The position numbers and the translations under genes are program-made. The notes below the pieces were generated by a model, which worked only from the letters and a program-made list of their open reading frames with translations, was not told where the DNA came from and made no database searches. From a virus, in IMG/VR virus record IMGVR_UViG_3300046703_000247, positions 19,234 through 83,233 of that record: a stretch of DNA of 64,000 nucleotides. One strand, written 5' to 3'. Positions within the stretch are counted from its first letter, which is position 1. Each line of letters starts with the position of its first letter. Below are positions 5,696 through 60,396 of this stretch, in pieces.

Positions 5696-5750
5696 GAAGC
5701 CACCAGGGGCGAGACCCGGCGGTCTCTCCCCCGGTACCCCCTCGTCCCTG
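5696..5750 (-). repeat. Hairpin element copy 2 (intergenic)
   Basis: Reverse complement CAGGGACGAGGGGG..GGGGGAGAGACC-GCCG-GGTCTCGCCCC. Confidence 0.9.
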
Positions 5751-5764
5751 ATCTGCTCCGTCCG

Positions 5765-5820
5765 AAGGGAGAAAAAGGGTTTGGGAAAAGGAACCATAGG
5801 TTCCGTTTCCCGAGGCCCCA
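5765..5820 (+). repeat. Hairpin element copy 3 (intergenic, back-to-back with copy 2)
   Basis: AAGGGAGAAAAAGGG..GGGAAAAGGAACC-ATA-GGTTCCGTTTCCC. Confidence 0.9.
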
Positions 5821-5839
5821 CTTGAAAGAGGCAATCTTT

Positions 5840-7144: not shown

Positions 7145-7153
7145 GCGATTAGA

Positions 7154-7210
7154 GGCCGAAGCCTCGGGGACGAAACCCGGCGGTTTCTTCCCCAAACCCC
7201 TTCATCCCTG
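7154..7210 (-). repeat. Hairpin element copy 4 (intergenic)
   Basis: Reverse complement CAGGGATGAAGGGG..GGGGAAGAAACC-GCCG-GGTTTCGTCCCC. Confidence 0.9.
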
Positions 7211-7216
7211 ATCGCA

Positions 7217-7525
7217 ATGCCCAAGCTCAAAGGCGTCAGCAACTCCGAGGGCCAGCGTCTGGGCTACATGATGGAGTGCCCCGGCTGCGGCCAGTGGCAC
7301 GTCATCTACACCGAACAAGCCAACGACCTCAAGGCCCGCTGGACCTTCGACGGAAACATGGAGAAGCCCACCTTCCACCCTTCCATTCTGTGCCGCTGGA
7401 CCGAAGGCAAGGAGCAGGTGAAGAAGGTCTGTCACTTCTTTGTGCGCGCGGGCAAGATCGAGTTCTGCGGCGACTCGACACACGCGCTGGCGGGTAAGAC
7501 CGTAGATCTACCGGACTGGAGTTAA
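7217..7525 (+). CDS. Small Cys/His protein, DUF6527-like
   Basis: CPGC..H...W.FDG..EKPTF.PSIL...CHFFV..G.I.FC.DSTH.LAG.TVDLP. Confidence 0.65.
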   Translation: MPKLKGVSNSEGQRLGYMMECPGCGQWHVIYTEQANDLKARWTFDGNMEKPTFHPSILCRWTEGKEQVKKVCHFFVRAGKIEFCGDSTHALAGKTVDLPDWS

Positions 7526-7531
7526 CTGCTA

Positions 7532-7855
7532 ATGCCAATCCCAGAAATGCTTTGGTGGCTGATCGTCGCGCACGCCCTCTGCGACTTCCCGTTGCAGGGC
7601 GACTTCCTGGCGCGCGGGAAGAACCACCGCGCTCCGATTGCCGGGGTGCCCTGGATTATCTGTCTCTTCTCCCACGCGCTGATTCACGGCGGAGCGGTGG
7701 CGCTCGTGACCGGCAGCGTCTTACTCGGAGCGGCCGAGACTGCCGCACACGCCTGGATTGACTGGGCCAAGTGCGACGGCCGCTACGGGTTCGCGGTGGA
7801 CCAAGGGCTGCATCTGCTGGTCAAGGTCGGGTGGGTGATTTGGCTGACGCGCTAG
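7532..7855 (+). CDS. Membrane protein, DUF3307-like
   Basis: H.L.DFPLQ...K...H..IH...H..ID..K...DQ.LH motif. Confidence 0.7.
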   Translation: MPIPEMLWWLIVAHALCDFPLQGDFLARGKNHRAPIAGVPWIICLFSHALIHGGAVALVTGSVLLGAAETAAHAWIDWAKCDGRYGFAVDQGLHLLVKVGWVIWLTR

Positions 7856-7858
7856 AAC

Positions 7859-8173
7859 TCAGCCGTGCCGGTGCCGGCGAGCGCGGCGAGGAATCCATGG
7901 CGGTTCAGGGCTTCTTTTCATGGACACTTTCTTTCCCAATACAGGCTGGAAGCAGAAGGACGATTCAACCACTTCCGTGATTCGGAACTGTGTCGGGTCC
8001 TCAAAGAACGTAACAATGTCCCCAACATTGAGAAATGCCAGACCATTGACCTGGCAAGCAGTTCCCGGCGGAATACATCCGAGAGACGGGATGCCGGCTG
8101 CCGGTGCGGGCTGCGGCAGCAGTGGCGCGGCAATCGCGCCCGCCAGCGCTCCGATGAACCCGCGTCGATTCAT
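7859..8173 (-). CDS. Small protein with twin-arginine-like N-terminus
   Basis: MNRRGFIGALAGAIAAP; TG-n-CAGAAT 6 nt upstream of the ATG. Confidence 0.5.
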   Translation of the reverse strand: MNRRGFIGALAGAIAAPLLPQPAPAAGIPSLGCIPPGTACQVNGLAFLNVGDIVTFFEDPTQFRITEVVESSFCFQPVLGKKVSMKRSPEPPWIPRRARRHRHG

Positions 8174-8191
8174 AAACCCATTCTGCCACCG

Positions 8192-8248
8192 AAGGGAAAA
8201 GAAAGGTTCGGAAAGAGAAACCTCGGTTTCGTTTTCCGAGGCCCCCAG
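8192..8248 (+). repeat. Hairpin element copy 5 (intergenic)
   Basis: AAGGGAAAAGAAAGG..CGGAAAGAGAAACC-TC-GGTTTCGTTTTCCG. Confidence 0.85.
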
Positions 8249-8263
8249 TAAAGGAACCGTGCC

Positions 8264-9821: not shown

Positions 9822-12800
9822 ATGCCCCTTACCGATACCCCCGACAGCTTCGTGCCCGACGTTCCGACCCCGGAAGAGGTCGAAGCCGAGTTGCGCGCGG
9901 CTGCCAAAGCCCACGGCCTCGACGAGGACCTGGCGCTACGTGTGGCCAACCGGGAAAGCCGGCTCACGCAGTCCGCCACCTCCCCTAAAAAGGCGCGCGG
10001 AGTCATGCAACTGATGCCCGAGACAGCCAAAACCCTGGGCGTCGATCCAGAGGACTGGCAGCAGAACATCCAGGGTGGGGTGAAGCTCCTCAAGAGTAAT
10101 CTTGACTACTACAAGGGCGACACCAGGAAAGCGCTCGCGGCTTACAACGCCGGACGCGGACCCGTCGACAAGTACAACGGCGTTCCCCCCTACAAGGAAA
10201 CCCAGGAGTATGTGGATAACATCCTCGGCAAGCCCGTAGCCCCGCCGCCGAGTTTCGAGCCGGATCCGCCCAGCTTCGAAGCGGACCAGCCGGTCACCAT
10301 CCCCGGCCTACTTAAACCGGGCAATATCGACCTCACCGCCAGGCCCGTTCATAAGAACCCTGATGGCACAACCTCAACAGTGCTTTCCATGAGGTTTGGC
10401 GAGGATGGCAAGGAAATACTGGTTCCCAAGGTCAGTGAGGATGGGACCTGGATACTGTCCGACGAAGAGGCGGTCGACACCTACCACAAAACGGGGAAGC
10501 ACCTCGGGATCTTCAAGGATGTGCCCAGTGCGAACGCCTATGCGCAGCAACTCCACGAAGATTACGCCTCCGGAAGAATCAAGTTAAAGACCCCGGGGGC
10601 CGCTGACCCGCCCAGCTTCGAAGCGGACCAGCCGACTGCACTCCAGGTTCCCGCCCAGATCCCCAGCCGAGCCGAACTGGCCACGATGGGCGAGCGCTTG
10701 GGCGTCCTACGCATGACGCTCGATACTCAGGCCGAGCAGATGGCCCGCAACCGGGCCGCGCTCGAGGCCGAGGCCCAGCAGTTCACCCCCAAGACCCCTC
10801 CCGAGCAACTGGCGGCCTTCGACCAGAAGGTGAAGTTGCACAACCTGGACCTGGCCGAGTTCCAGAACGCGGTCGCCGGGCACGCCAAAGACATCGAGGC
10901 GTACAACGCCGGGACGGCGGCGTTCAACGAGAACCTTGGGCGCTATGACCAGGCAATGAAGGTGCCGCCGGGCACCCAACGGACAGGACTCCCAGGAATG
11001 CCGCTCACCCGCATGCCGGTGCAGGTGCAGCCGAGCGGGGTGTTAGGCCTGGCTAAAGAGTCGCTGCCTTGGAAGATTGCCAACACCCAGGCATTCAAGG
11101 CGCTGGGATTGCCCACCACCGCCGACGCCTACGACTATTCGGTGGAGGCTGCGAAGAAACTTGTAGCGAAGGTGCTGGGTGAACCGAGCGAAACCACCGC
11201 CAGGAAGCACCCAGGCGTGGCAGCAACCCTCACATTCGGCGCGCGCGTTGCCCGCCTGTTCCCTGAAGTGGCCGACTTCATCCTGACGCCGGCGGGGACG
11301 GCTACGGCCATCGCGACCGCGGTCGCCCCTCCGGCGGTAGTCGCAGGTGTGGGCGCCGCCTTCAGCACAGACATCGCCCTGAAGGCGAATGACGCCATCG
11401 AAGTAGCCCGGACCAACCCGACTCCCGAGAATATCGGGGAGGCCGTCAAGCTGTCGGCTATGGCTCTCTTGCCCTTCCTGCGGCCGGCGGCCGAGTTGGG
11501 CCGGAAGGTCGAACGCGGGATCGAACAGCACAACGTCCAGGCGGCCCAACTGGTGGAGCGGGAGCGCACCCAGGGGTTAGGAAAAGAATGGGGGCAGGCC
11601 ATCCTTGGGGAAGAGCCGGTCCGCGTCGAGATTGCGGGGAAGTCCCACACTATTCAGGCGCTGGGCGGGAATCCTGTTGCCGGTAGTGTCAGACCGCGTC
11701 CCACCTACCAAGTGGTGGATGATGCCACCGGCAAAGCCGTCTACTCGGGAGAAGCTCCGGCGGTCCAAGGTTATCTCGAACAGCAGCAGGCAGTTCGAGT
11801 CGGCGGGCTCGTAACATCTGTCGACCAGATCTCAGCGCAACTCGATACTGAGTATTCCAAAGCCGTGGCCGACCGCGCGGTGGCCCAATCGGTTCGGGAC
11901 CAGATCAGACAACTTCAGAAATTCTCGCCCGAGCAACTGAAGGCCGAGCAAGCCAAGGGCAAGGTCATCCTGGACCACGAGGCCGAACTCAACCAAAAAG
12001 GCGTAGCGGGGCTCTCGGAAACAGACCTGGTGGAGGTCCAACAGCACCTCCAGATGGTCGATGATCTACTCGCCGGGAAGCCCATCAGCGACAACTTTGC
12101 CGAACAGGCCGTCAAGGAAGCCGACGCACATATCTCCGAAATTCAGAAGAAACGGGCACAACTCGGAGCCGAAGGCACGAAGCTCCCACAAGCGCAGCGG
12201 CCCGCCGCCCCCGGGCCCGCCGCTCCCGCCGTGATCGCCAAAGGCACCACCGTCGCCGGCGGGAAGATCACGGTCACCGAGGTCAAAGGCGGCAAGGTCG
12301 GCTTCGAAAAGACCATGCCCGGCGGCCAGAAGATCCGCGGAACCATGCCGATCGAAGCCTTCCGGTCCCAGTTTCTTGCGACGTCGCAGCCTGTTCAGCC
12401 GCAGCCTACTGCTCAGCCGAAGCCTCGGGAGACGGAACCTACGGTTCCTTCTCCCAAACCCACTTTTTCCCTTTCGGAAGCCGAGCAGGCGCAGTACGAC
12501 CAGGTCGCGGAGTTCGCCCGCACCGCCGGAAAGCCGCTCACCGACAAGTTGCTTTGGGAGAAGTTGAAGATTCCGCGCCACGAGGGCGCAAAGATCCTCG
12601 CGGTGATGAAGCAGCAGGGAGCGCTGGACCAGCAGGGGCAGCCGCAAGCTCTTTCGCCGCAGCCTGTTGTTCAACCGCAGCCTCCAGGGGCGAAACCTGC
12701 GGTTTCTCCCCTAGCAACCCCTCTTCCCTTGAACGCCGCCCCGGTCGGCCAAGCCTACCAGGGCGAGCTGGCGGGCGACTGGTCGCCCTACTACCGGACC

Positions 12801-15800
12801 ATGGCCGAGGCGCAGGCCGCCGGCGCGAAGAACGTGCAACTCGGGGCGGCTCCGGAGGTATGGAACGGGCAGAAGTGGGCGGGGGCGGTATCAAATGATG
12901 CCAAGCAGCAGGCTCAGCCGCAGCCTCCAGGGGCGAAACCTGCGGTTTCTCCCCTAGCAACCCCTCTTCCCTCCGAACCCCAAACGCCCGCCCTTGAGGC
13001 GCTGAAGCGCCAAATGTCGGACTTCTACAGACGGCGCGTGCGCGTGAACGACCGCACCTTCGTGGGGGGCGTCTACAATCCCAATCGCTCCGAAGAGGAA
13101 CGCCAAAGCATTGACGCCCAACTAGAAGAGATTGATTCCGAGGCGCGCAGTGTTCTGTCGAAGGTCCCACAGAACGACTTGCCCGAGCTAATGAGCGCGG
13201 ACAACCGGATGCGGGTCCTTGAAGGGGACAATCCCCTAACCCGAAATGACAGAGGAGGCCCTGACTGGGCAGCGCAGGAATGGCTGAACCGGATTGTCGA
13301 GGTGACGCCGGAGCGCGCCGCATTGTCTGCGCCGACAAGCACCCCAGCCCCAGCAGGTAAGCAGATTGCCGCGCCCCAGCCCCCCGCTGTGCGCGCGCCG
13401 GCCCCCGCCGAGACTCCAGCATCCTTCGAGCCGGACACACTGCCCAGGAGCCTGGAACTGGAGCAGAAGCACGGTCTCTCACCCGCCGAGGCAGCCGTCA
13501 TCAACCATGCGCTCGACCGCCTGCCCCAGGTTCGCAAGGACTACTCCAGCGCAGCGGAGGCACTTCAGAAGGAAGCCCTGCGGCTGGCGGCGCCGGCGAA
13601 CGTCCCGCTCGACAAGATCGCCAACATCAAGTTGCTCAAGCGCATCCTGGCGGACTACCTCGACCCCGAGCAGTTTAGAGCCGCAGAGGCGCAGAACAAG
13701 GAACCCTGGCAGATGACGCGGGAGGAGTTCACCGCCCCGGTGCGTGAGGATCTGGCTCGTTGGAATTCGTCCTTCGATGAGTTGCGCGCCAAGAGAGGCG
13801 GGACTCGCGGACAGACCCCAGCACAGGCTCTCTTTGATGCGAAGCAGAAGCACGAAGAGGGAAGAAAGCCCTACCTCGAACGTATCGCGGAGACAGAGCA
13901 ACTTCATGAGCGGAACATTCGCCGTGCGGTTGCAGACGGTAAACCCGTTCCGGCCGCAGTCCTAGCCGAGTACCCCGATCTGAAGCCCGCGCAAGCACTC
14001 GACCCCGACCAAGTCTACCGACGCGCACAGGCCGAGATGGAGCGGCGCCATCTGAAGCAGGGGCTGGAGCAGTTAATCGCCCTCGACCCCGACAACCCGC
14101 GTGAAGACGATCTTGGAGTTGGCAACGATCTTGAGGACGTAACAGGAAACCTGCAAAGCATCGGCTTCTCCAGACCGGAGATCCAGGCCGTACTGGAAGG
14201 CCGCCGCCAGCGGCTCCAGGCGCACCGTGAGCAATCCGCGCGCGCGGCTGAAGCCATCAAGCCGGCGATGCCTGGGGGCGTGGTCTATGAAGCGGTGGGC
14301 AAGGCTGTGGGCGCTTCGCGCGATAAGAAGGACTCCCAGATGTTCGTGTGGCGCACGGACAGCGAGAAGCAGGGCTACGAGTTCCTGAACGCGCTGGGCA
14401 ACAACCTCCAATATGGCCACAAGGATCTGCCGGCCGCCATTCGCGCGGTAGCCGAGCAGAACCCAGATTGGACGGATCTATCAAAGACGGCTCTCACTGC
14501 GCTCGGAAGGGAAGAAGTGGTCTCGGAGAAGAAACCGCAGGTTGCGTCTCCGGAGTCTCAGCCGAAAGAAAAGCCCACCGAGTACGACTTCGCCTCCACC
14601 CAGGTGAACCTCCCGCCGGAGATCGCCCAGGCCATGCAGGAGTTCAACGCCCAGATCCCAGATGAAGACCTGGCGGTAGAGGCGGGAGCCAAATACGGCG
14701 GGGAGACAGCCGCCAAGGGCCGCGAAGAACAGTCGCACGTCACCCTGCTCTACGGAATCAAATCCGAGAACCCGGACGCTGTGCGCAAGTTGCTGGAGAA
14801 CCAGCCGCCCATCACCCTGAAGCTGGGCAAGACCTCGGTGTTCGCAGGAACCGACAACGGCGATGTGCTCAAAATCGACGTGGAATCAGAGGATCTGGAG
14901 CGGCTCAACAAGCTGTTGAAAGACAACCTGGAGTTCACCGAGACCCACCCAGGCTACAAGCCCCACGCCACGCTGGCCTACCTCAAGGTGGGGAAGGGCA
15001 AGGAGTGGAGCGGCAAGGACGTGCCGGGAGTCACCGGGAAGACTGTAACCCTGGACCGGATTGCATTCTCGGACAAGAGCGGGGAGCAGACATCTATCCA
15101 ATTGAAAGGTGAGAAGCCGCAGACTACTCCTAAGCCGCAGCCTCGGGAGACGGAACCAACGGTTCCTTCTCCCAAGCCCGCTTCTTCCCTTTCGGAAATC
15201 CCGAAGCCGAAGGCCTACACCTTTGCCAATCACAAGTTCATGTCGGCGAAGGACAAGCAACTCACCTTCAAGGCGTGGATCACCTTCCTCCGCAACGGGC
15301 TACAACAGAAGGACTTCACCAAGCGGCTGTACGAGCAACTCCACCAGCACATGGGCTTCATCGCCCACTACAACATCAACGGGTTCTACGAGGAGTACTT
15401 CCTGCACGGCGAGGACACCGAGCGGTTCATTCAGCACTTTGACCTGGCCGACCACCGCTACGGTCCGGACTCCACCAACGGATTCTGGATGAATAGTGAC
15501 ACCGCCAAGGATTTGAACCGCGCCATGGTGGATGAGGCGGCGCCGTATCTGCCCGGCCTGTTGGAGAAGGCGGCGGCGGGCCAGAAGGCCGAAGACCTGG
15601 CGGAAGCGCAACGGCTCCAGGCGAAGCACGGCGCGCCGGCGCCGGCGCCGGTTGTCACCCATAAACTTCAGGGCGGAGGGATCGTACAGGAGTTGAAGTC
15701 TCCGGAATTGCGTTTTCAGAAGAACGACCACGTTCGCTGGACCGACAAAGACGGAAATGCCAAAGAGGGATACGTCAGCCGCGTCGAGGGTCACCTGGTT

Positions 15801-18800
15801 TTCATCGGGACAGAGTCAGATCAGAAGTTCGGGATGTTCCGCCCGGTGATGGCGAGCAAGGTCGAACTGATCGAGGATGAGGGCGACACCCCCACTCCGA
15901 AAAGGGATGAAGGGGTCGAGGGGAAGCAACCGCAGGTGGCGTCCCCTCGGGCTCCAGCCAAGACAGAAGCGCCCGCCAAGACCGGAGATATCGAGCGCCA
16001 GATCACCGAAGCTGAATCCGACTTGGCCGCCGCCCGTAAGCTCTACGAGGGCACCGAAGACGGAACACTCGACCAGGAAGAAGCCATCCGGGAGATGCAC
16101 CAGGCGCTGGCCGAGGTGAACCGCCTCCAGGCCGAAGCCGCCAAAGAGAACCCGCTCCTCACCGAACAGGCCGAAGGCCGCCGTCAGACCATGCCCCCGA
16201 TGCCCAAGGGCAAGGAGAGCCACTGGCAGCAGTTGATGGACGACTCCTCCGACCTGGGGGCCACCGCCGGCGAGGAGTACGTCGTTGACTACGGCCTATG
16301 GGTCGAGCGCGGCAAACCGGCAGGCAAGGAACCCGAGAAGCCCAACGCCGAGCGTGAGACCTCCATCGACCGCGGCGAATACCCCAAGGGTTGGCTGCGC
16401 CAGGCGGCCGCCGAGTTCCAGACCAGCTTTGATAAGGAAGTTGCCAAGGGGCTGAAGGAGATTGAGCAGGAGACCGCCAGAAACGCGGCGGGAGCGGCGG
16501 CCGACGCGGCGCGCGAGCTCGAGATCCGCAAGGCTGAGATTCAGGACCTGGCCGCCAAGTTGCGCGAGCACGCGAGCGGCGATCGCACCGACCTGGCGGA
16601 GCGCAAGCGGCTCGTCACCGCCGCCCTAGACCTGAAGACCGGCAAGAAGCTCAACGAGGACACCGATGCGCTCTGGGAGCAAGCAATCCGCCCGGCCATC
16701 GAGGCGATCCGTCGCGCCGCGGTGGACAAGATTGAGGGCAAACAGATCACCCCTGACACCCCTGTCTGGGAGATGCGACCAGCGCAATACCTGGAGCACC
16801 GGCGCGAACAGGCGTTGCAGATTCCAAAGGGCAGCTTCCTCGAGCGCGAGCCCGGGGAGTGGCGCACCGAGTTTCTGGTAACGCTGTCCAAGGAGGAACT
16901 TGGGGTATTGCTCCGCCTCAACGGTCTCCCCATAAACGGCACCAAAGCCATGATGGTGCAGCGCTTCCAGGATGCCCGCGCGTTGCGCAACCAGTTCGAG
17001 GGCAAGACGGCGGAGCAGATCGAAGAGGAGATGACTGGCGCGGAGATCGACCGCGCGCTGGAACAACTCGGGGCGGGGAAGTACGGCAACAAGCTGACGC
17101 GGGCCGGGACAATCCTCGGCACCATTCAAAGCCAGCGTAAGAAGGGCGAGAGCGTCCTGGCTGAATTCAACTATCAGCGCGCCATCTATCGGGCAGTGGG
17201 GAAAGGCCAGCCGGTCCCCGAGGAGATCCAGAAGAAGTACGGCGCCTTCCAGACAATCGAGGATGTTGCCGCCGCAATTCCAGAAGAGGGGACCGCGGAA
17301 CCAGACAAGAAAATCAGGATTGGCGACCGGGTCACATGGAAGGGATTCGACAAGGTTGTACGGGTCGGCACGGTCAGCCACATTCGCCACCACATAGAGA
17401 ACGGCCGGGAGCGCAATACGCTGGAGATTGACGGCGACGACCATGGCCGCTACTTCCCTGACGACGTCGACGTCACGAAAGTAGCCGCCGAAACCAGGGA
17501 TGAAGGGGGCGCGGGGGAAGCAACCGCAGGGTTGCGTCCCCAGCAGGCTCCGGCAGAAACACCCGCCGAACCGACGGAATACGCCTTGTCGGGCGACACC
17601 TACCGCTTCAAGAACATCATCCGGGCCCAACTGCAAGGCAAGTGGAACGGCAAAGAAAAGGTGTGGATTATCCCCGCCAGCCAGGTGGAGGCAGCCCGGA
17701 AACTCTCAAAGAAGATCGAGGTGAAGCCCTTCGGGCAGGTGAAGACAGCCCCCGCCCAGCCGCCCATGGACGAGCAGACCGCCTCGGCCGTCATCCAGGA
17801 TCTGGTCAAGACCATCTCCGAAGCCCAGGAAGAGGTGCACTTCGCGCAGAACGACAAGGACACCGACAAAGGCGCAAGCACTCAGGCAAACGAGGCCAAA
17901 CTGGCTACGGCCGTCAAGGATCTGCGGAGCGTGGTAACGGAAGCCAAGAAGTACTTGGACTTTCCAAACGCACCGGAGAGCGATAGGGAAGCTTTGCGGA
18001 CTCAACTCTACCGCGCCGAGCAAAACCTCAGAGGATATGAGCGCCCCGGCCCCTCCATCAACCAGACCATCGAAGCCGAGAAGTACGTTGAGAAACTGAC
18101 GGGTCCCGAGCAGACCTACGCGGCGAAGTACAAGGACTACTGGCTGGGAAAGATCGCCGAAGAGCCTCCCTACGTCGGCGTCCACATCAACCCGCTGCGC
18201 GCTGAAGGCATCCGGACACATCTAAAACACGTCCTCGGAAAACGGGTAGAGGTTACCGGCGGGCCGGAAGCTACGAAGCCCGCGACCGAGACGCGCGTCC
18301 CCAAGTGGGGCAACCTCACAGAATTGGAAGCTGAGCTGCTCCGCGGCCTCAATAGACCACAGCCTATTGGTGATCTCTTTGATTCGATCGGTCAGCATTG
18401 GCCTGATTCCGAGAAAATCAAGGTGCTTCATGCACTCGACAGCCACGGTCTGGTAAAAGCCATCCACGGCGGCGGGTACGAGCGCACCGAGGCGGGCACC
18501 GTCGCAATCGGCAAAGGACCGGCGGAAGCGTATCTTCCGAAGGGGACCGCGCCGGCGCCTGCACCGAAGGGCAGCTTCAAATACGAGTTCCAGGTGCACG
18601 GCGAAGGCGGCAAGTGGAGCGACAACGCCCTGCGCTTTGCCACCGAGAAGGAAGCCCAAGCAGCCGGAGATGAGCACCTTACGCGCTGGACCATGGCCGA
18701 TGCGGTCCGGGTGGTGCCGTCCGAGGATGCGCCTAACTACCGCTGGGACGACGACCAGTACAAATCCGTCCGGCTGTCCGGGAAGGAAGAGGGGGTGCAG

Positions 18801-21800
18801 GGGGAGAAACCGGAGGTTTCGCCTCCTGAAGCGCCGGCCCCAACAGTTGAGGAAGCCCTGGCTATCATCGAGAGAAAAGGCTCAGCCCATTGGGAAGACA
18901 CTACCATCAAGGTGGTTCCACACCCATCGGTTACCGGGATGGTCGACACCGATGGAACCAGCTTCTCAGTAGAAGTGACCCGGAATGGGGAGCGCAACAT
19001 CATCGAAGCCGCCCCTCTGTCCCTGGAAGATGCCCAGAAAAAAGCTGCCCGGATGCTGGTGGAACGCGCAAAACTTCCGCCACTCGGCAAAAAACAGAGC
19101 ATAATGGAGGCGGAGCAACCCAATGCCCCAGGTGGAATACAGCAGCCCGTTCGTTCAACTGGTGCTCGACCAGTGGAAGAACAACTTCCCGAAGGAAGCC
19201 GAGCGCCTGGAGAAGCAGGGAACGCTCCTCAAGTGGGCCGAGTACGCGACCAAGCGGGCGGGCGCGGTACACGAGCAGGCGCTGGCAAACGGAGCGAGCT
19301 ACACCCAGGCGGAGGATCTGTCCCTACCCGAGTGGGGCCAGCCACCGACGTTGAACGATCCCTCCCTCCCCGTTCCCGAGACGTAGCCAACAACCGCCAC
19401 GAGCACGACTTCCGCATTCCGGACCGGCGTGTCATTTCCGGATCCCCTGAAACCCGGGCGAAAGCCAACCTCGCAGCCATCCGCCTGTTGCGCGAAATCC
19501 AGCAAGACAACCGCGCCGCCACGGTCGAGGAGCAGGAGACCCTGGCGCGGTACGTCGGATGGGGCGCCGTTCCGCAGTTGTTCGCCGGCAACACCTCAGA
19601 GTGGAAGGCGCTCCAGAACGACCTGCGCAAGTCGTTGAGCGAAGAGGAGTACTCTCTCGCCCAGAATTCCACCAAGAACGCCCACTACACGGGAGATGAG
19701 GTGGTGGATGCCATGTGGGCCACGCTCGAGCGGATGGGCGCCACGCCGGGCATGAACTGGCTGGAGCCCGCGGTGGGAGTCGGGAACTTCTTCGGCCGGC
19801 AGCCGGAGGCCTTGCTCGCGGGTTCGCGACGAATCGGAATCGACAAGGATTCGCTTTCCGCACAGATTGCCACGCTGCTCTACCCGGACTCGGGCATCCA
19901 GAACCAGCCCTTCGAGGAAGCCGAACTCCCCAAGGACTACTTCGACGCCGCCATCTCAAACGTGCCCTTCGCCGATGTTAAGGTGCACGACCCTGAATTC
20001 CGCAACAAAATATACCTGAGATCGAGCGTTCACAACTACTTCTTTGCAAAGACTTTGGGCAATGTGAAGCCGGGCGGCATCGTGGCCTTCATCACTTCTC
20101 ACTACACCATGGACGCCTACGGCCAAGAGGCCAGGGCTTTCCGGAAGTGGATCGCTTCACAGGCCGATTTCCTCGGCGCCGTGCGGCTGCCCTCGAACGC
20201 CTTCATGCAGAGTTCGGGCACCCACGTCATCACCGACATCGTCTTCCTACAGAAGCGACTGCCCAACGCTGCGCCCGCCGGCGAGGATTGGGTGGAGACG
20301 GTGAACAAGACGCTCTCCGGGCAGTGGGGCGTGTATCCCGTAACCACCAACGCCTACTACAAGCGGCATCCCGAACACCTTCTGGGAGAGGAGAAGCTGA
20401 AACGCGGCCAGTTCTCAGACCATGATTACTTTGTGGAAGGGGAACTGACGCCGGCCGCCCTGAAGAAAGCCCTCTCCAAGATCCCCGGCCAGTTCCAGCA
20501 ATGGCAGACAGGGGCGACGGCCCCCCGGCGGATCGCCCTGCGGGAGATTCGCGCAGAATCCGACAAGGCCAAGCTCGGAGCCCTCTTCTTTGATGACAAG
20601 GGCGACCTGTTCCGCAAGACCAGCAAGGGATCCGCTGAGCCGATTCCCGTGAGTGCGGATGCCAAGCAGAAGATCAAGGGTCAGTTGGAATTGCGCAACG
20701 CCTACGCGGAGCTGCTCGAGCTCGAGCGCAAGGATGCCCCCGAGGCGGCGCTCGATAGCGCCCGCAAGCGGCTCAACCGGATGTACGACAAGTACGTCGC
20801 CGAGCACGGCCCCTTATCGAGCCGAAGCAACACGGAGCTGCTCAAGGGAGATCCGGACGCCCCGCACGTCGTCAGCCTGGAGCGCAAGTGGGACCCCAAG
20901 ACGAAGACCGCCGAGAAGTCCCCGATTTTCAAGCGCCGCATGCTCCAGCCGCCCAAGGCCCTGGAACACACCGCCGACGCCAAAGATGCTCTTTACGTCT
21001 CCCTGAATCAGACCGGGCGGATTGACTTCGAGCGCATGGAGAAGTTAACCGGCAAGGGAAGCACCCAACTCCAGAGCGAGTTGAAGGGCATCATCTACCA
21101 GGACCCGACCAGCCGCGAGTGGGAGATGGCCGACGAGTATCTCTCCGGAGCGGTGCGCACGAAGTTGCGCCAAGCCCAGGCCGTGGCCAAATTGGAGCCC
21201 GAGTTTGAGGAGAACGTCAAGGCGCTCGAACAGGTGCAGCCCGACGACATTCCGCCGGCACAGATCAGGGTCGCACTGGGCGCAACCTGGGTTCCGATCG
21301 ATATCTACACCGAGTTTGCAACGCACATTCTGAACAGCTCGACCGACACCCCGGTCCGCTACGTGGCGAACCACTGGCACGTGGATGAGCCCTACTACAG
21401 TTCCGCCCGGTCCAAGAGCCAGTGGGACACCGGCCGCATGAATGCCCACCAGATCCTGGAAGGCTCCCTCAACATGACGCGCCTCAAGGTCCACGACTGG
21501 GACAGCGATAAGAAGCGGGATGTTATCAACCAGCCGGAAACGGCCGCGGCGCAGGCCAAGCAGCAGGAGTTGCAGACCTACTTCGAAAGATGGCTTCTAT
21601 CTACCGAGGCCGCGCGCACGGACCAGATGGTGCGCCTCTACAACGATGCGAAAAACGACCTCCGCCTCCCGACCTTTGACGGCTCCCACCTGACCCTTCC
21701 GGAAATCGTTCGGGATCCGCAGATTGTGACGGGCGGCGATCTGGCACCCCACCAGAAGAATGCCGTTTGGCGCGGCATCAAGCAGCGCAATGTGCTCCTG

Positions 21801-29001: not shown

Positions 29002-29427
29002 ATGAACCGCCGAGGGTTCCTCTTCACAGCCTTGGGAGCACCCGCTGTTGTTGTTGGCGCGACCGCGCCCACCACGCGCTTACAACCTCCCGGCCTGCCT
29101 GTAGATCCTCAGTTTGATTTTGTCGACGGGGCACATTACTGTGCTGGGCTGTACTACGGCCGCCGGGTTGCCTTCGCTTCGCCAAATTATCCCAACCGCC
29201 TCTGGTTTTCCCGTGCCGATCCCCCGCGCCGCTTTCACGACCCCTACGGTATTGGCGACTGGGTCGACGTCGGCGATTCATGGGACCGGATCGTTTCAGT
29301 CTATGTTTGGCACGCGGACCTGATTATTCGCAAGCTCAACAGTGAATGGCAGTTCTGCGGCGACCTAGACTGGGGCATTTTCTATTTTCTGGGTGATCCC
29401 CAACGGAGAGGAGTTCTGAGAGTATGA
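29002..29427 (+). CDS. Protein with twin-arginine-like N-terminus
   Basis: MNRRGFLFTALGAP; TAGAAT 6 nt upstream of the ATG. Confidence 0.55.
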   Translation: MNRRGFLFTALGAPAVVVGATAPTTRLQPPGLPVDPQFDFVDGAHYCAGLYYGRRVAFASPNYPNRLWFSRADPPRRFHDPYGIGDWVDVGDSWDRIVSVYVWHADLIIRKLNSEWQFCGDLDWGIFYFLGDPQRRGVLRV

Positions 29428-29774
29428 ACCGCCGCGGCTTCCTGGCTATGCTGGCTGGCGCGGTGCTCGACCCCGAGCGCTTGCTCTGGGTGCCGGGGAA
29501 GAAGCTCATCTCTATTCCGGCAGAATCCGCGCCCTGGCCTTGGCGGCACGGACCGTTTCTCGTAACCGCGCACATGGAAGGTTCCAGCGACGTGGCCGCC
29601 ATTATGGAACGCCTACTCAATCACCGTTGGACGATGGACCCCGTGTGGCGACAGCACGCGCAAGACATGATTGACCGCGACATGCAACGGATTCTTCTGG
29701 GCGAGGTGCAGCAGACCATCGGGTTCTTCCGCACTTCCGAGAAACCTACTCCTTCGCTGCAGATGTCGGCCTGA
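29424..29774 (+). CDS. Protein with twin-arginine-like N-terminus
   Basis: MNRRGFLAMLAGA; ATGA coupling. Confidence 0.55.
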   Translation: MNRRGFLAMLAGAVLDPERLLWVPGKKLISIPAESAPWPWRHGPFLVTAHMEGSSDVAAIMERLLNHRWTMDPVWRQHAQDMIDRDMQRILLGEVQQTIGFFRTSEKPTPSLQMSA

Positions 29775-30105
29775 CAATAATAGGCGGTGTCACCTGCTGC
29801 ATGACTCGTTCCATCGCCAACTCGTCGTAGGCGCTGAGCCGCTCCTGCAAGTGTTCAAAGGCGTTTTCACAGCAGCGCAGCACGTCCTCACACCAGCGGA
29901 TCTTTTCTCTCTCCATCTCAGCCTTGCTCCAGAAATCCAGTTGACGAGGGACCAGAAACATCCGCTCCTGCGTCAACGCTAGGATTTGCCGCGCCAGTTG
30001 GTGCGCCACTGTTGGAGGGGGCGGCAGACGCATGCGCGGCTGAAGGGATGAAGGGGCTTCCGGGGAAGCAACCGCAGGTGGCGTCCCCGGAGGCTGCGAT
30101 TTCAC
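29746..30105 (-). CDS. Hypothetical protein (N-terminus encoded by repeat copy 15)
   Basis: Coupled to 30102..30284. Confidence 0.4.
   Translation of the reverse strand: MKSQPPGTPPAVASPEAPSSLQPRMRLPPPPTVAHQLARQILALTQERMFLVPRQLDFWSKAEMEREKIRWCEDVLRCCENAFEHLQERLSAYDELAMERVMQQVTPPIIVRPTSAAKE
30043..30098 (+). repeat. Hairpin element copy 15
   Basis: AAGGGATGAAGGGG..CCGGGGAAGCAACC-GCA-GGTGGCGTCCCCGG. Confidence 0.9.
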
Positions 30106-30614: not shown

Positions 30615-30672
30615 AAGGGAAGAAAAGGTTCAAGGAAAAGAAACCGCAGGTTTCGTGTCCTTGGGCTCCAGC
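30615..30672 (+). repeat. Hairpin element copy 16 (probable 5' UTR)
   Basis: AAGGGAAGAAAAGG..CAAGGAAAAGAAACC-GCA-GGTTTCGTGTCCTTG. Confidence 0.9.
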
Positions 30673-35915: not shown

Positions 35916-35972
35916 AGGGAAGAGGGGTTCCAGGGGAGAAACCGTAGGGTTTCGCCCCTTGGGGCTCCGACC
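35916..35972 (+). repeat. Hairpin element copy 18 (upstream of resolvase)
   Basis: AGGGAAGAGGGG..AGGGGAGAAACC-GTAG-GGTTTCGCCCCT. Confidence 0.9.
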
Positions 35973-45975: not shown

Positions 45976-46031
45976 AGGGATGAAGAGGGTTTGGGGGAAG
46001 CAACCGCCGGGTTGCGTCCCCCGAGGCTTCG
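45976..46031 (+). repeat. Hairpin element copy 20 (close to copy 4)
   Basis: AGGGATGAAGAGGG..GGGGGAAGCAACC-GCCG-GGTTGCGTCCCCC. Confidence 0.9.
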
Positions 46032-46204
46032 AAACCCCAAGGTGAGGGTGACTAGGACAGGGCATCGAAGAACCTCTCTGCTATGTGCCCGATTGCCCAG
46101 AACACACCAATCCAGAAAAGGACCACCACCACAGCCATCAACAGCCAGCCGCGGATGAGCGGCCAGTTCCACCCCGTGTGTGTCAGGTTGCGGAGCATCA
46201 CGCG

Positions 46205-46966: not shown

Positions 46967-48288
46967 TCACAGGGACGCTTGGCTGCGCGTGGCGCGAAAT
47001 TCATCCGTGTCCTCTCTGATCTGCGGTACCCACTCGTCGCGCTTCTCGGCGTTGTAGGTGCGGTAGTAAGCCTCGAGTCCCAGCGCGTGGGCCGTGCAGC
47101 GCACACCGATGCGGTGCCAGATGATGCACAACCATTCGCTCGGGCGCCGGCGCGGGGTGAACGTCTCGATGCGTTCGGGCCGCTTGTGCTCTCCGAAGAC
47201 CCAGTCGCGGAGGCGCTCGATGGTGCTCGCAGTTTGAAACTCGTCAGTAATCATGTTTTCGCCGCCTGTTTTTTGGATTTGGCGCGGGGGCCCCGCCGCT
47301 CGGGTGCCCCCCGCTGTACGCTCAAGCCGGCATTTACTCCGATGGAGGTTGGCGGCGCTACGCTTGGCCCTGTCACGCGCCCGGCTTTCCCGCAGCTCTC
47401 CGGGCTGGCACACACTGCCGCTCCTCGCCCACCGGCCAGTGCTTTCGCTTGGGTGTATCTCGTGATGATCTTGTCTACTTCCTCCTGGGCCACGCGGCCG
47501 CGGGTGGGGAAGTTCTGGATGTCTTCGATGCTCATGGCGCCGCTCTCTGCGCTTTTTCTCCGACGACGCGCAGCTCATGGTATTGGTAGGTCCGCGTCCA
47601 ACCATCCGGGAAACGCACGATTATGCGGCCGTAGTCCCAGCCAATCACTGTGCCGACGTCGAGGTCGGTTACCGTCACCTCGGCTTTCACTTCGACCTGG
47701 TCGCCGACCTCGATCTTCATGCGCTCGCACCTGGCGGGGGCGCAACCTGCGGTTTCTCCCCCACCGGCCCCTTCTTCCCTTCGCGCGGATCGATCTTCTT
47801 GAGCAGGATGTTGTACTCAGTGGCCCTCTCGCGCCAGCCCTGCGCGTGTGGCGGAGGTTTCGTCCCGGGCACCTCACAACTCATCTCGGCCTGGAACATC
47901 ATCTTGCAGTGGGCAATTGCGTCGCGCAGCGCGCGGGAGATCAGGGAGGGGCGGGGAACGCTCACCCCGACGCTCCCTTCGTGAAGGTGACCTTCAGCCC
48001 GTGTCCAAATTCCGACCGACCCGACACGATCCATCGCCTCTTTTCCTCTTCGACCTCGCGTAGCAACGCGGCCCAATACGGGCGGTGTGCACCTTCGAGC
48101 CAGCAAGTCACCACCAACACAGCGGCCTCGCAGTTTGAACACAGGTCCGCTTCGCCCGGTGCCCACGAGCACGGCGGATCGCACGGCTCGCGCTCCGTGC
48201 AGCCGCAGACCCGGCAGCGGATGTAGCCGTCGCGGTCGTGGTGGAGGACGGCCTCGCGCCGCTGCGGCTTCAAACGCACGGTCTTCAT
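46967..48288 (-). CDS. Run of small coupled hypothetical genes, including a CxxC protein at 47962..48288
   Basis: 4-bp start/stop overlaps at 47251-47254, 47532-47535, 47717-47720 and 47962-47965. Confidence 0.5.
47727..47781 (-). repeat. Hairpin element copy 21 (in-frame, C-terminus of 47717..47965)
   Basis: Reverse complement AAGGGAAGAAGGGG..GGGGGAGAAACC-GCA-GGTTGCGCCCCC. Confidence 0.9.
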
Positions 48289-57021: not shown

Positions 57022-57024
57022 TTC

Positions 57025-57079
57025 GTAGCCCCCAGGGGCGAAACCCTGCGGTTTCTCCCCCGGTACCCCTTCTTCCCTG
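57025..57079 (-). repeat. Hairpin element copy 22 (intergenic; close to copy 2)
   Basis: Reverse complement CAGGGAAGAAGGGG..GGGGGAGAAACC-GCAG-GGTTTCGCCCC. Confidence 0.9.
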
Positions 57080-57110
57080 CTTTTTAGAACCAACACAGGA
57101 GACACACACC

Positions 57111-57341
57111 ATGAACGCATACGAAATTCGTCTGGAAGTTCTCAGGATTGCAAAGGCTGTTGTGCAGGAAAACGCCGTCGAATGGGTCACTACAGACAAT
57201 GGGGTACCTTGCGCCAAGCAAAAGCCCTATCAGGTCGGTGAGGTGCTTCAAACAGCAAAGACGATGTACGGGTTCGTCGAAGGAGAGCCCGATGCCTTAC
57301 AACTGGGCGCGGCTGCCCGGAGGGCCAAGATCGTCGCATAG
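57111..57341 (+). CDS. Small phage protein
   Basis: AGGAG RBS; N.YEIRLEVL..AK....EVL..AK.MY.FV. Confidence 0.6.
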   Translation: MNAYEIRLEVLRIAKAVVQENAVEWVTTDNGVPCAKQKPYQVGEVLQTAKTMYGFVEGEPDALQLGAAARRAKIVA

Positions 57342-57349
57342 ATGTCACG

Positions 57350-57407
57350 AGGGAAAAAGTGGGGCTGGGAGAAGAAACCGTCGGTTTCGTCTCCCAGAGT
57401 CCCAGCC
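57350..57407 (+). repeat. Hairpin element copy 23 (intergenic)
   Basis: AGGGAAAAAGTGGGG.CTGGGAGAAGAAACC-GTC-GGTTTCGTCTCCCAG. Confidence 0.9.
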
Positions 57408-57642: not shown

Positions 57643-58135
57643 CCCGCCGGCCAACTTTGCAGATCAGTTGGCGCAGTTGTTCGCGACACACGGCGCGATC
57701 TACCGGCGCCTGGCCTATCGGTATCTCGACTCGAACGACGATGCCGAGGATGCCGTGCAGAACGCTTTTCTGCGGGCCATCGAGCGCCACCACCAGTTCC
57801 GCGGGCAGTCGCTGCTCTCGGGATGGGTCATGCGCATCCTTCAGCGCGAGTGTCTGGATCAGCTTCGGCTGCGCGCCCGGCGGCCCGCGGAGGAGTTGGA
57901 TGAGCGCCACGCCGGCGCGGAAGAGTTTCCCATGGGCGACTTACTTCTCAATCACTGGCGCTCGGCCGTCCTGCAGCACCTGTTCCGGCTGACCGCCGGC
58001 GAGCGGCGGTTTCTCGGAAGAGTACTTGACGACGAGGACCTCAATATGAGCCTCCCTGGCAACAAGAGCCTGCGCCACCGGGTGCTTACGAAGCTACGGT
58101 TCGCCGTGCAGCGCAAGACCCAATGCCGCAATTGA
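57575..58135 (+). CDS. ECF-type sigma factor
   Basis: A.RYL....DAEDAVQ.AFL.A......FRGQS....W..RI....C.D..R; region 4 degenerate. Confidence 0.7.
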   Translation: MQGCPNTVFPSPKSDIAPPSASNPPANFADQLAQLFATHGAIYRRLAYRYLDSNDDAEDAVQNAFLRAIERHHQFRGQSLLSGWVMRILQRECLDQLRLRARRPAEELDERHAGAEEFPMGDLLLNHWRSAVLQHLFRLTAGERRFLGRVLDDEDLNMSLPGNKSLRHRVLTKLRFAVQRKTQCRN

Positions 58136-58153
58136 TTACCTCCGGATTCGACC

Positions 58154-60337
58154 ATGGTCACCGTAACTAGCGTCTCGAAAGAACCCGAAACTCCCGACTG
58201 GGGCCAGCGCGACGAGTTTATCCGCACTGCCCTGCGGCGTTTTCATCTGGCTCGCGACGCGGAGCGCGACATCCGGGACAAGGCGCTCGATGATCTGCGC
58301 TTCTTCCAGGGGGATCAGTGGCCGGCAAGCATCGTCGCCGAGCGCAATGCGGATGGGCGCCCGTGTTTGACCATCAACCGGCTGCCGGAGTTGGCGAGCC
58401 AGCCCCTCAACCAGCAACGGCAAGGGAGACCGCAGATTCAGGTCAACCCGCGCGGCGGCGGCGCCACGCTCGACACCGCTCACATCATCCAGGGGCTGAC
58501 GCGCCACATCGAGGTGGCGAGCCAGGCTGAGGCGGCCTACGATTGGGCGTTTCAGTACGCGGTGATCTGTGGCTTTGGCTACTTCCAGTACGCCACCGAG
58601 TGGGCCGACGAAGCCGACGAACAAAGCTGGGACCTCGAAATCCGCGTCAAGCCGGTTTTGAATCCCTTCGCGGTCTACTTCGATCCCTCCTGCCAGGACC
58701 GGCTGTATCGCGACGCGAAGTGGGCCTTTGTGGTGGAGGATCTCCTCCCGGAGGACTACAAAGCCAAGTACAAGGGCTCCCAAATGGCCAGCCTCTCCGA
58801 GTTCCGCTCCATCGGGGACGGGGAGAAGGAGTGGTTTCGGGACGGCATGATCCGCGTCGCCCAGTACTGGACCGTGGAATTTGACACACACACACTGGTA
58901 CAACTCGCCGACGGAAGAACCATCCCCGAAAACGACCTGGACAAGTATCCCGACGCCACCATTGCCCAACGCAACGGCGAACCCCTGCTCCGCGAAGTCA
59001 GAATTCCCAAAGTGCGCTCCGCGGTAATCAACGCGCGCGAGATTCTGACCGGGAGCAAAGAGCAAGCACCCTTCGGAAAGCTGTTTCCAGGGAAACGAAT
59101 CCCTATCATCCCCGTGCTCGGCGAAGAGTTAATCGTAGACGGCAAGCGGACGTTGAGCGGCATCGTGCGCTATGCCCAAGACGCGCAACGCCAGTACAAC
59201 TACATGCGCACGGCGCTCACTGAGCAGATCGGCCTGTCTCCCAAGGCGCCCTACATCGCCGCCATCGGCCAAATCGAAGGCTTTGAGGAAATCTGGAACA
59301 ACGCGAACCGGAAGAATTACTCCGTCCTCCCCTACAACGCCAAGGACGTCAACGGAACCCTACTGCCAGCTCCCCAGCGGAACTTCGGAGAGCCGCCGAT
59401 CGCTGCCATCGCCGCCGCCGTGGCGCAGGCCGACCAGGATCTGAAGTCGACCACCAGAATTCACGAGCCGATGATCGGCACCATGGGTCCGGAACAGTCC
59501 GGAAGGGCGATTATCGCCCGGCAAAACCAAGGAAATCTGGCAACATTCGCCTATGTCGACAACTTGAGCCAGTCCATTATGCGCCTCGGCGAGGACCTGG
59601 TCGCCATCATGCCCGCGGTGTACGACCGCCCGGGCCGGGTGGTGCGCATCGTCAAGCCGGATCAGACGCACGAAACGGTCACCCTGAACCAGCCTTTCGA
59701 GAAAAACCCCGAGAAGCAGCCCGGAGTGATGGAGTTCTACGACCTCACGACCGGCACCTACGACATCACCATCAGCGTCGGGCCGGGGTACGAAAGCAAG
59801 CGCCAGGAGTTTGTGGCCTCCGTGCTCGACCTGGTCCGCGCGGCGCCCCAGATCGCGCAACTCGTGATGGATCTGGTGGTGCGGCACATGGACTGGCCGG
59901 GAGCGACCGAGATCGCCGACCGGCTGAAGAAGGCCCTGCCGCCTGGCTTACAGGAAGAGGGTGACGCTGCCGGTCCCGGGCAGGTTCCACCGGCCTTCGC
60001 CGCCCAGATGGAGCAGTTGATGGAGCAGCACGCCGCGTTGGTCAAGCAGTTGAACGAGGCGACCAGTGTGATTGAGAGCCGGCGCATGGAGATGGAAAGC
60101 CGGGAGCGCATCGCGGAAGTGCAGGCCCGGACCCAACTTCTGGTAGCCGAGCTGAAGAACCAGAGTGCGGAAAGCCAAACGCTGTTGCGCGAGAGCCTGG
60201 CGCGGATCGACCAGAGGCTGGACCAGTTGAGCGGCAATCAGCCGATTCAAGGTTCGAATTCTCAGCAGCCGCAGCCTGCTGGGGCGCCACCTACGGTTGC
60301 TCCCCCACAAGCCCCCTCATCCCTTCAAGGCGGTTGA
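58154..60337 (+). CDS. Portal protein, P22 gp1-like
   Basis: D.RF..G.QW, RPCLTINR, G.VR...D.QR.YNY, SG.AI.ARQ.QG; precedes scaffold and coat. Confidence 0.88.
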   Translation: MVTVTSVSKEPETPDWGQRDEFIRTALRRFHLARDAERDIRDKALDDLRFFQGDQWPASIVAERNADGRPCLTINRLPELASQPLNQQRQGRPQIQVNPRGGGATLDTAHIIQGLTRHIEVASQAEAAYDWAFQYAVICGFGYFQYATEWADEADEQSWDLEIRVKPVLNPFAVYFDPSCQDRLYRDAKWAFVVEDLLPEDYKAKYKGSQMASLSEFRSIGDGEKEWFRDGMIRVAQYWTVEFDTHTLVQLADGRTIPENDLDKYPDATIAQRNGEPLLREVRIPKVRSAVINAREILTGSKEQAPFGKLFPGKRIPIIPVLGEELIVDGKRTLSGIVRYAQDAQRQYNYMRTALTEQIGLSPKAPYIAAIGQIEGFEEIWNNANRKNYSVLPYNAKDVNGTLLPAPQRNFGEPPIAAIAAAVAQADQDLKSTTRIHEPMIGTMGPEQSGRAIIARQNQGNLATFAYVDNLSQSIMRLGEDLVAIMPAVYDRPGRVVRIVKPDQTHETVTLNQPFEKNPEKQPGVMEFYDLTTGTYDITISVGPGYESKRQEFVASVLDLVRAAPQIAQLVMDLVVRHMDWPGATEIADRLKKALPPGLQEEGDAAGPGQVPPAFAAQMEQLMEQHAALVKQLNEATSVIESRRMEMESRERIAEVQARTQLLVAELKNQSAESQTLLRESLARIDQRLDQLSGNQPIQGSNSQQPQPAGAPPTVAPPQAPSSLQGG
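60268..60325 (-). repeat. Hairpin element copy 24 (in-frame, portal C-terminus)
   Basis: Reverse complement AAGGGATGAGGGGG..GGGGAGCAACC-GTA-GGTGGCGCCCC. Confidence 0.85.
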
Positions 60338-60396
60338 GGGAAGAAAAAGGTCTTAGGGAAAAGAAACCGTCCGGTTTCGTTTCCCTGAAGCAGCAG
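60337..60396 (+). repeat. Hairpin element copy 25 (back-to-back with copy 24; close to copy 1)
   Basis: AGGGAAGAAAAAGG..TAGGGAAAAGAAACC-GTCC-GGTTTCGTTTCCCTG. Confidence 0.9.

Follow-up and report, generated by a model that had tools for sequence, protein, structure and literature searches.

In lambdoid phages, accessory genes known as morons are found between core late genes, and short shared sequences at the junctions of modules have been proposed to guide exchange. Mobile insertion cassettes carry passenger genes flanked by inverted ends of insertion sequences (IS), and in integrons (attC sites) and Din-family segments, imperfect hairpin-like sites bound the cassettes, with a small serine recombinase nearby. 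The IMG/VR record IMGVR_UViG_3300046703_000247 of a soil phage (G000; 83,233 bp, estimated to be 86% complete) harbors a hairpin repeat of ∼60 nt, which was compared here with these systems. Similar to mobile insertion cassettes and MITEs (miniature transposable elements with inverted repeats), short inverted copies of the repeat flank passenger genes in the absence of a transposase, and an autonomous-looking unit of the host carries the same sequence. It differs from MITEs in the conservation of a central hairpin instead of the outer termini, in showing no visible target-site duplication and in that the host unit holds one internal copy and not two terminal ones. Compared with the boundary sequences of lambdoid phages, the copies are structured, covarying 60-nt inverted pairs, which also occur in frame within a protein. 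As in attC and Din-type systems, a small serine recombinase is encoded nearby in G000; unlike those systems, there is no IntI, the copies are inverted and not direct, the loop length is variable, and the cores of partner copies are mismatched. The layout of the repeat likewise resembles that of the ends of IS608.

A similar layout is found in repetitive extragenic palindromic (REP) sequences and their doublets, the REPINs, as described in passages of two papers (PMC3337134, PMC6006769). REP/REPIN elements, which are mobilized by REP-associated tyrosine transposases (RAYTs; PMC3116915, PMC3337134), have in common with the present repeat short imperfect palindromes, a conserved 5′ motif, many copies per genome, inverted doublets with a short spacer between them, and covarying stems. 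The repeat is unlike REPINs in being phage-borne at ∼370 copies per Mb, with dissimilar doublet arms and no RAYT in the record; further, a third of the copies are translated, and the genes enclosed by a pair total up to 1.6 kb. Rickettsia palindromic elements (RPEs) are, in the relevant passages, palindromic repeats placed in frame within protein-coding genes and, as here, translated, sparing the protein; they differ in being ∼150 bp long and bacterial, and these passages describe no bounding of variable modules (PMC10969869). The present repeat is ∼60 nt long, serves as a linker in both orientations, and is located at the domain-block edges of one giant protein.

Our preferred reading, held tentatively and with a confidence that falls a little short of even, is that this horizontally spreading hairpin repeat acts as a joint prone to recombination, where modules as well as protein domains are acquired, lost, or exchanged. 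A profile seeded from the repeats reported by a repeat search of G000 DNA was run against the whole record and identified 31 copies at E ≤ 2.8e-9, i.e., 31 per 83 kb or ∼370 copies per Mb. Of these, 25 lie within the window, the whole stretch of 64,000 nt that was analysed (bases 19234-83233 of the record), whose coordinates are used below. The copies are ∼57-62 nt long, and their alignment spans ∼60 nt. Each of the 31 aligned copies consists of a purine-rich leader starting with AGGG, a hairpin, and a weakly conserved trailer, with conservation being maximal at the central apex and the leader and weak in the outer trailer. The hairpin comprises 16 pairs as predicted by RNAalifold, and at 10 of the 16 at least one copy was found to be changed on both sides with the pair kept. 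Such compensatory changes in the stem show that the hairpin has been selected for. The apex (AACC-loop-GGTT) and one G-C pair are invariant, an A opposite a G (A·G mismatch) is conserved, and the apex loop is 2, 3, or 4 nt long. No Rfam family matched within the window at gathering scores, and a tRNA scan found none. A literature search of limited scope yielded no description of this repeat.

The strand order of the copies over the whole record (F, plus; R, minus) is F R F R F R F R F R F R R R F R F F F R F F F F R F R R F R F, the strand being changed at 22 of 30 neighbouring copies (P = 0.011). There are 11 minus-then-plus spans with leaders facing inward (R→F) and 11 F→R spans. Centre distances of the R→F spans range from 68 to 5,130 nt with a median of 768, nine of the 11 being ≤1.5 kb, and those of the F→R spans from 630 to 10,200 nt with a median of 4,225 (2/11 ≤1.5 kb). 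In the permutation test suggested by the initial annotation of this DNA, R→F spans were found to be the shorter ones (Mann-Whitney share 0.87; strand shuffle, P = 0.011; gap shuffle, P = 0.0013), and the pattern is beyond chance, though the spans are few (11 each). Within the window alone, six of eight R→F spans are ≤1.5 kb, the exceptions being 1,588 and 5,130 nt. The two empty doublets described earlier were recovered as such, with 16 nt between the CCCT end at 5749 and the AGGG start at 5766, and 12 nt between 60324 and 60337. The filled brackets listed with them are equally real (7154-8250, 57020-57407, 28926-30101, 12916-14559, and 15132-15960).

The content of these spans was evaluated against G002, a complete record of 87,779 bp and the only syntenic relative found, with core genes sharing 50-70% amino acid (aa) identity. 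A covariance model with filters off identified three repeat copies in G002 (E ≤ 0.003), all in the giant gene, other matches being at E ≥ 0.18. G002 is without any intergenic copy and without both empty doublets; its junctions between the gp14-like and 434-aa genes and between the 434-aa and 518-aa genes are ∼65 nt long and hold neither repeat nor cargo. All genes of the DUF6527/DUF3307/Tat-like (twin-arginine translocation signal-like) cargo at 7217..8173 are missing from G002. When span homology was scored by tblastn based on open reading frames (ORFs), the G002-homologue share of the nine R→F spans >100 nt was 0, 0, 0, 0, 0, 0.35, 0.09, 0.52, and 0, i.e., near zero in eight of nine with a 5-kb span as the exception. 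The eleven F→R spans showed shares of 0.15-0.93, with one at 0 (one-sided P = 0.0037 vs. R→F). This is in agreement with the earlier claim that short R→F spans are accessory and the longer F→R spans core. The features of the window are as follows:

1151..1207, plus strand: copy F1151; a 126-aa ORF (835-1215) runs into it, and a 483-aa gene starts 32 nt later
5691..5749, minus strand: copy R5691, left arm of empty doublet 1, overlapping the stop of the gp14-like gene
5764..5821, plus strand: copy F5764, right arm of empty doublet 1; an ATG at 5840 is 18 nt on
7154..7209, minus strand: copy R7154, left edge of the cargo span
7217..8173: cargo, with DUF6527 (7217-7525, plus) and DUF3307 (7532-7855, plus) genes by Pfam and a Tat-like ORF (7859-8173, minus)
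8191..8250, plus strand: copy F8191, closing the cargo span on the right; the 518-aa gene follows after 13 nt, and the minus-strand Tat-like ORF starts 18 nt away
9822..27182, plus strand: ejection protein of 5,786 aa with SLT, a weak Acb1-like match, SAP, Eco57I-type methylase, and SNF2 helicase; eight in-frame copies
12415..12475, minus strand: copy R12415, in frame in the giant gene, aa 865-885
12673..12730, minus strand: copy R12673, in frame, aa 951-970; its orthologue is G002 copy R30129
12916..12972, minus strand: copy R12916, in frame, aa 1032-1051; left edge of a module without G002 match
14506..14559, plus strand: copy F14506, in frame, aa 1562-1580; right edge of the module without G002 match
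15132..15193, minus strand: copy R15132, in frame, aa 1771-1791; start of an insertion relative to G002
15900..15960, plus strand: copy F15900, in frame, aa 2027-2047; a decayed copy is at the matching place in G002
17496..17552, plus strand: copy F17496, in frame, aa 2559-2577; closes the 530-aa module begun at F15900
18783..18838, plus strand: copy F18783, in frame, aa 2988-3006; its orthologue is G002 copy F33561
28926..28984, minus strand: copy R28926, left edge of the Tat-like gene span
29002..29774, plus strand: cargo of two Tat-like small ORFs (29002-29427 and 29424-29774)
30042..30101, plus strand: copy F30042, right edge of the Tat-like gene span
30615..30672, plus strand: copy F30615, partnerless
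34208..34266, plus strand: copy F34208, directly preceding the conserved part of a PD-(D/E)XK nuclease gene
35917..35972, plus strand: copy F35917, 39 nt ahead of a small serine recombinase gene (36012-36674)
40844..40904, minus strand: copy R40844, forming the non-conserved C-terminal tail of a minus-strand 604-aa methylase ORF; the copy lies 56 nt ahead of the next minus-strand gene
45976..46032, plus strand: copy F45976, within a minus-strand gene region
47724..47781, minus strand: copy R47724
57020..57078, minus strand: copy R57020, overlapping the stop of a ClpB-like AAA gene
57111..57341, plus strand: cargo, a 76-aa ORF without G002 homologue
57349..57407, plus strand: copy F57349
60267..60326, minus strand: copy R60267, which makes up the left arm of empty doublet 2 and supplies the translated tail of the portal ORF (P22 type)
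60338..60391, plus strand: copy F60338, right arm of empty doublet 2

G000 is podovirus-like: it encodes a portal of the P22 type and a protein like T7 gp14, and its 5,786-aa frame opens with an SLT domain resembling that of T7 gp16. PDB sequence searches with both halves of the giant protein gave only SLT/gp16 and SNF2 matches. The frame remains open through all eight copies, the four R copies being read in one element frame and the four F copies in another, and the peptides from both frames are rich in Pro, Glu, Lys, Ala, and Ser. These two frames recur in the three G002 copies, in a single copy within the 4,827-aa giant ORF of the unrelated phage G001, and where the G000 portal ORF reads through R60267. 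All 13 coding copies from the three phages thus keep to a single frame for each orientation (7/7 sense-F, 6/6 sense-R). Six of the eight copies are placed ≤12 aa from the edge of a G000/G002 BLASTP block (P = 0.0006 vs. random placement), a coincidence that is inflated, since homology-search blocks tend to end in low-complexity linkers anyway. A 511-aa stretch between R12916 and F14506 is unmatched in G002; this slot answers to the G002 slot R30129..F31138, which is also R..F-bounded and unrelated in content. The 530-aa module between F15900 and F17496 corresponds to ∼24 aa in G002, beside an apparent decayed copy, and two copies, R12673 and F18783, are orthologous between G000 and G002. Comparison of the two predicted proteins shows the copies as inter-domain linkers that flank variable modules; crossovers within the copies do not follow from it.

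Two pairs of copies in the giant gene are closely alike. R12673 and R12916 (window 12671-12972), separated by 243 nt, share 97-98% identity, suggesting that a stretch of the giant gene was duplicated locally and recently, and R12415 and R15132 share 85% identity over 98 nt, reaching beyond the repeat. At 65% identity to G002, the domain between F14506 and R15132 (window 14563-15131, aa 1580-1763) is conserved better than any other module in the variable middle of the giant protein. It showed a weak Pfam match to Acb1 (anti-CBASS 2H phosphoesterase; E = 0.0064, below cut-off).

Five small ORFs with a twin-arginine signal-like N-terminus (MNRRGF/L...) were identified, all in R→F spans: 7859-8173 (minus), 29002-29427 (plus), and 29424-29774 (plus) in the window, and L237:15635-15997 (minus) and L237:15994-16281 (minus). 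They form three arrays, of which one is on the plus and two are on the minus strand. In all three, a conserved junction is common to the cargo and the leader of the adjacent copy (window 8174-8191 and 28985-29001; L237:16282-16292), so the adjacent copy belongs with the cargo and not with the core gene on the other side. Within this junction, a −10-like hexamer is found 6-7 nt ahead of the ATG and would point to leaderless transcription. The ORF at L237:15994-16281 carries a diverged version of the coat gene N-terminus of the phage itself (window 61693-62907; 49% identity over 57 aa).

To ascertain the distribution of the repeat, viral contigs were scanned with an exact pattern and then with the profile and the model. 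True copies were found in the unrelated complete phages G001 (two copies), G003, and G004 as well as in several fragments; G003 and G004 gave seven model matches each, contig-end duplicates included. Four further short R→F pairs were observed in other phage records, with gaps of 240, 285, 951, and ∼1,515 nt. The same exact pattern run on 185,579 species genomes returned 115 stretches, dominated by Acidobacteriota, of which 36 contain full-length copies, mostly in metagenome-assembled genomes (MAGs) of Bryobacterales, Terriglobia, Solibacteraceae, and other Acidobacteriota. Such patchy presence across unrelated genomes argues for horizontal spread. In five host genomes, for which 150 candidates were scored per genome, there were at least 1-11 matches each per 5.6-10 Mb; the repeat is vastly denser in G000 than in hosts.

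At 14 of the 115 loci, the copy is located ∼90 nt upstream of a 539-aa ORF, on the opposite strand, inside a unit of 1.94 kb (L129:2620-4562 of a Bryobacterales MAG; also in L059, L070, L091, L097, and L146). The unit occurs in several copies per MAG that are 97-99.8% identical, contains one repeat copy 75-120 nt inside one end and is without obvious terminal inverted repeats. Homologues of the 539-aa protein fall into 6,182 representative clusters (E ≤ 0.001), most of them on contigs of ∼2 kb; the protein itself matched no Pfam, NCBIfam, or PDB-sequence family, showing only a weak C-terminal winged helix, and the end of the unit gave no Rfam match at E ≤ 1. The 1.94-kb unit may represent an undescribed IS family of soil Acidobacteriota.

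Taken as a joint between modules, the repeat would belong to a family that spreads horizontally among phages of Acidobacteriota (Bryobacterales-type hosts), is also present in the IS-like unit of the host and has multiplied to 31 copies in G000. DNA absent from the relative, accessory genes and extra domains of the giant protein alike, would be bounded by pairs of copies with inward leaders, and the modules would be gained, lost, and swapped by recombination at these portable joints. The route could be homology-driven exchange between co-infecting genomes or structure-prone breakage and repair, with no dedicated integrase; G000 encodes a PD-(D/E)XK nuclease, an HNH nuclease, and a serine recombinase. 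The copies may persist because they are nearly harmless, filling a few bases between stop and start or, within genes, being read as a flexible Pro/Glu/Lys/Ala-rich linker in one frame per orientation. Owing to this single frame, recombination between same-oriented coding copies would keep the reading frame. Recombination at the repeats, the direction (gain or loss), the mechanism, and the enzyme are what we infer; the data themselves show the family and its hairpin, the spacing asymmetry, the joint absence of repeats and cargo from the relative, the agreement with block edges, and the horizontal distribution. Phage genomes are mosaic, yet the sequences at which modules are exchanged are seldom visible, and here one 60-nt repeat marks edges that include the domains of an ejected 5,786-aa protein with probable anti-defence enzymes. 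If exchange at the repeats is true, it would offer a testable mechanism for moron gain and for in-frame domain shuffling in large polyvalent injected proteins. The finding also points to an abundant IS-like family in soil Acidobacteriota.

The cassette capture proposed in the initial annotation receives partial support, from a single relative at moderate distance and from the recurrence of short pairs in other phages; R→F spans are accessory, and the cargo is missing from G002. Two components of that proposal are not supported. The likeness of the doublets to REPINs is one, as partners were no more alike than random R/F pairs (P = 0.92) and the record has no RAYT. The idea of an empty integration site is doubtful because the truly empty junctions of the relative hold no repeat. 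It had also been stated that relatives carrying the same genes without flanking elements would speak against capture; the cargo at 7217-8173 is absent from G002, and related Tat-like genes of G001 and G002 are repeat-free.

Several observations weigh against the repeat as a joint, in addition to the inflated coincidence with block edges and the occurrence of related Tat-like genes without repeats. Unrelated repeat-free DNA is present in G002 at three junctions shared with G000, and G000 has non-conserved genes at three further junctions without repeats, which indicates that repeats are unnecessary for module turnover. Likeness between partner copies is 41-70%, with a mean of 0.585 compared with 0.621 over R/F pairs in general (P = 0.92), and is lowest in the two empty doublets (48% and 41% identity). 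Such low likeness is poor for homologous exchange and speaks against pairs having moved recently as units. Recombination alone does not explain why R→F and F→R spans differ, and in G003 the spans are reversed (R→F 43.5 kb, F→R 2.6 kb). No close relative, no pair of empty and filled alleles, and no clean insertion with conserved flanks was found in the collections searched. In these searches, window 1-20000 had no phage-collection match by megablast, and scans of viral contigs with the gp14-like protein, two giant-gene modules, and the portal gave no relative. In the portal alignment, G002 showed 54% identity and all others ≤37%. A metagenome scan with the 434-aa protein gave relatives at 64-71% that are non-syntenic and repeat-free (three loci), and no repeat was found in 33 loci (309,702 nt) of distant portal relatives. 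No target-site duplication or flanking direct repeat was seen by eye in the 31 aligned flanks. The contigs of one peat metagenome, which may be the source of this DNA and in which the main contig of the phage is continuous, show only short pieces joining look-alike arms.

In these short contigs, which concern window 5749-8193, an R5691-like arm is joined to an F8191-like arm (side 30-54 nt, depth 2-8.6), one contig having four other letters between the arms. Such joints are probably other doublets in the community and not excision products.

The main rival explanation, which we consider rather unlikely, is punctuation of expression, with the R-sense hairpin marking or protecting mRNA 3′ ends or insulating against read-through, and the F-sense copy acting as a 5′ leader. 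Core units would then be framed F...R, and accessory genes would gather in the neutral R-to-F gaps. The orientation of copies in G000 follows gene ends, which points to a role in expression: sense-R copies begin 0-24 nt behind stops in eight of nine cases between genes, and for ∼10 of 14 sense-F copies the next gene starts 13-56 nt beyond their end. A higher A content of intergenic F copies than of R copies (P = 0.014) points the same way, the A-rich F copies standing ahead of late structural genes. In other phages, five copies are placed in R sense 4-81 nt after a stop, and two in F sense directly after a stop. The R-sense copy of the host IS-like unit lies upstream of a −35-like hexamer and the 539-aa ORF, in the position of an insulating terminator, and the compensatory changes, which place the hairpin under selection, fit as well. 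However, neither G002 nor 36 loci of relatives that share these core genes have intergenic copies, which the core genes can therefore do without, and eight copies are inside one ORF. Most copies are without a T run after the stem, the R-sense tail being C/U-mixed. A simple terminator scan gave 20 sites against 21.6 expected from shuffles, touching parts of two copies, and the promoter/terminator scan as a whole was at shuffle level. It would be odd for a terminator to lie 12-18 nt upstream of gene starts, as the sense-R copies do with the Tat-like genes. Even as expression signals only, the repeats would be the first of their kind to be defined in phages infecting this little-studied group of hosts.

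A more specific form of the exchange hypothesis is that the repeats are sites of a phage-borne module-exchange system, in which inward-leader pairs define cassettes moved between genomes and domains are shuffled in frame by the same machinery, the repeat being an open linker in both orientations, the candidate enzymes being the serine recombinase and the 539-aa protein. This is decidedly unlikely; if true, it would be a prokaryotic-virus analogue of exon shuffling in a giant injected anti-defence protein.

That either enzyme inserts, excises, or inverts R...F cassettes at dedicated sites, in essence the capture system of the initial annotation, is very unlikely. The palindromic apex of the repeat brings to mind the core of the Hin/Gin crossover site, and a resolvase-type serine recombinase of 220 aa (window 36012-36674, plus; resolvase E = 6.7e-40, with HTH_7) follows F35917 by 39 nt. 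Its homologues are found in G004 (44-637), 20 nt after a copy, and in G003 (4148-4714, minus), one ORF after a copy, the copy being sense-F in all three phages, and four of five complete repeat-bearing phage records encode a serine recombinase. Further, cassettes are present in both orientations relative to core genes, as seen with the Tat-like arrays (two minus, one plus), and the cargo at 7217-8173 comprises convergent gene sets as in invertible segments. Against this, the loops of partners differ in length (2-4 nt) and letters in six of seven pairs compared, a misfit to a fixed 2-bp crossover, and the lower stem covaries with no half-site sequence kept. Compared with Din-type systems, the small serine recombinase is present and matching crossover cores at fixed spacing are absent. 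G002 retains the recombinase (62% identity) without intergenic copies, G001 has copies and no recombinase, and the phage record encodes no tyrosine integrase. Inversion of modules within the ORF would close the giant frame because no full-length antisense ORF exists. The metagenome contigs show no strand-changing joint, though contigs drop rare variants. The serine recombinase was hence kept as a lead only.

Transposition of the REPIN/RAYT or IS200/IS605 type through a single strand, with AGGG as the cleavage site, the hairpin as recognition element, and a host HUH transposase acting in trans, is scarcely credible: it would suit the imperfect hairpin with its conserved mismatch and covarying stem, the conserved tetranucleotide located 15-19 nt 5′ of it, and the inverted doublets, but there is no Y1 transposase in the phage record, no HUH/Y1 match in the host 539-aa ORF, only 41-48% likeness between doublet arms, at least 10 translated copies, and few copies per host genome. 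The search for PF01797 (Y1/RAYT) covered the 83-kb record, where it gave no match while control genomes matched, with host genomes not searched for RAYTs. REPINs proper were rejected for their unlike arms here, the missing RAYT, and the coding copies (eight in the giant ORF; others in the portal, methylase, and 126-aa ORFs). Integrons were rejected as the record has no PF00589 match and the cassettes are bounded by inverted copies, and classical MITEs as the outer ends are least conserved and no target-site duplication was seen. RNA pairing between partner copies was rejected because partners are no more complementary than non-partners. Hairpin promoters of the N4 type were considered given the giant virion protein, and no RNA polymerase was among the PDB sequence matches.

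Two further ORFs of the window were noted. The 126-aa ORF at 835-1215, which is without a G002 homologue, derives its last ∼20 codons from the repeat F1151; its weak Pfam match (E = 1.4e-4, below cut-off) is to a helix-turn-helix like that of sigma-70 region 4. The 163-aa ORF at 30846-31337 shares its C-terminal ∼100 aa at 75-81% identity with ORFs in the otherwise unrelated G003, G004, and contig L012, where repeats do not flank it, and it looks like a recently exchanged gene.

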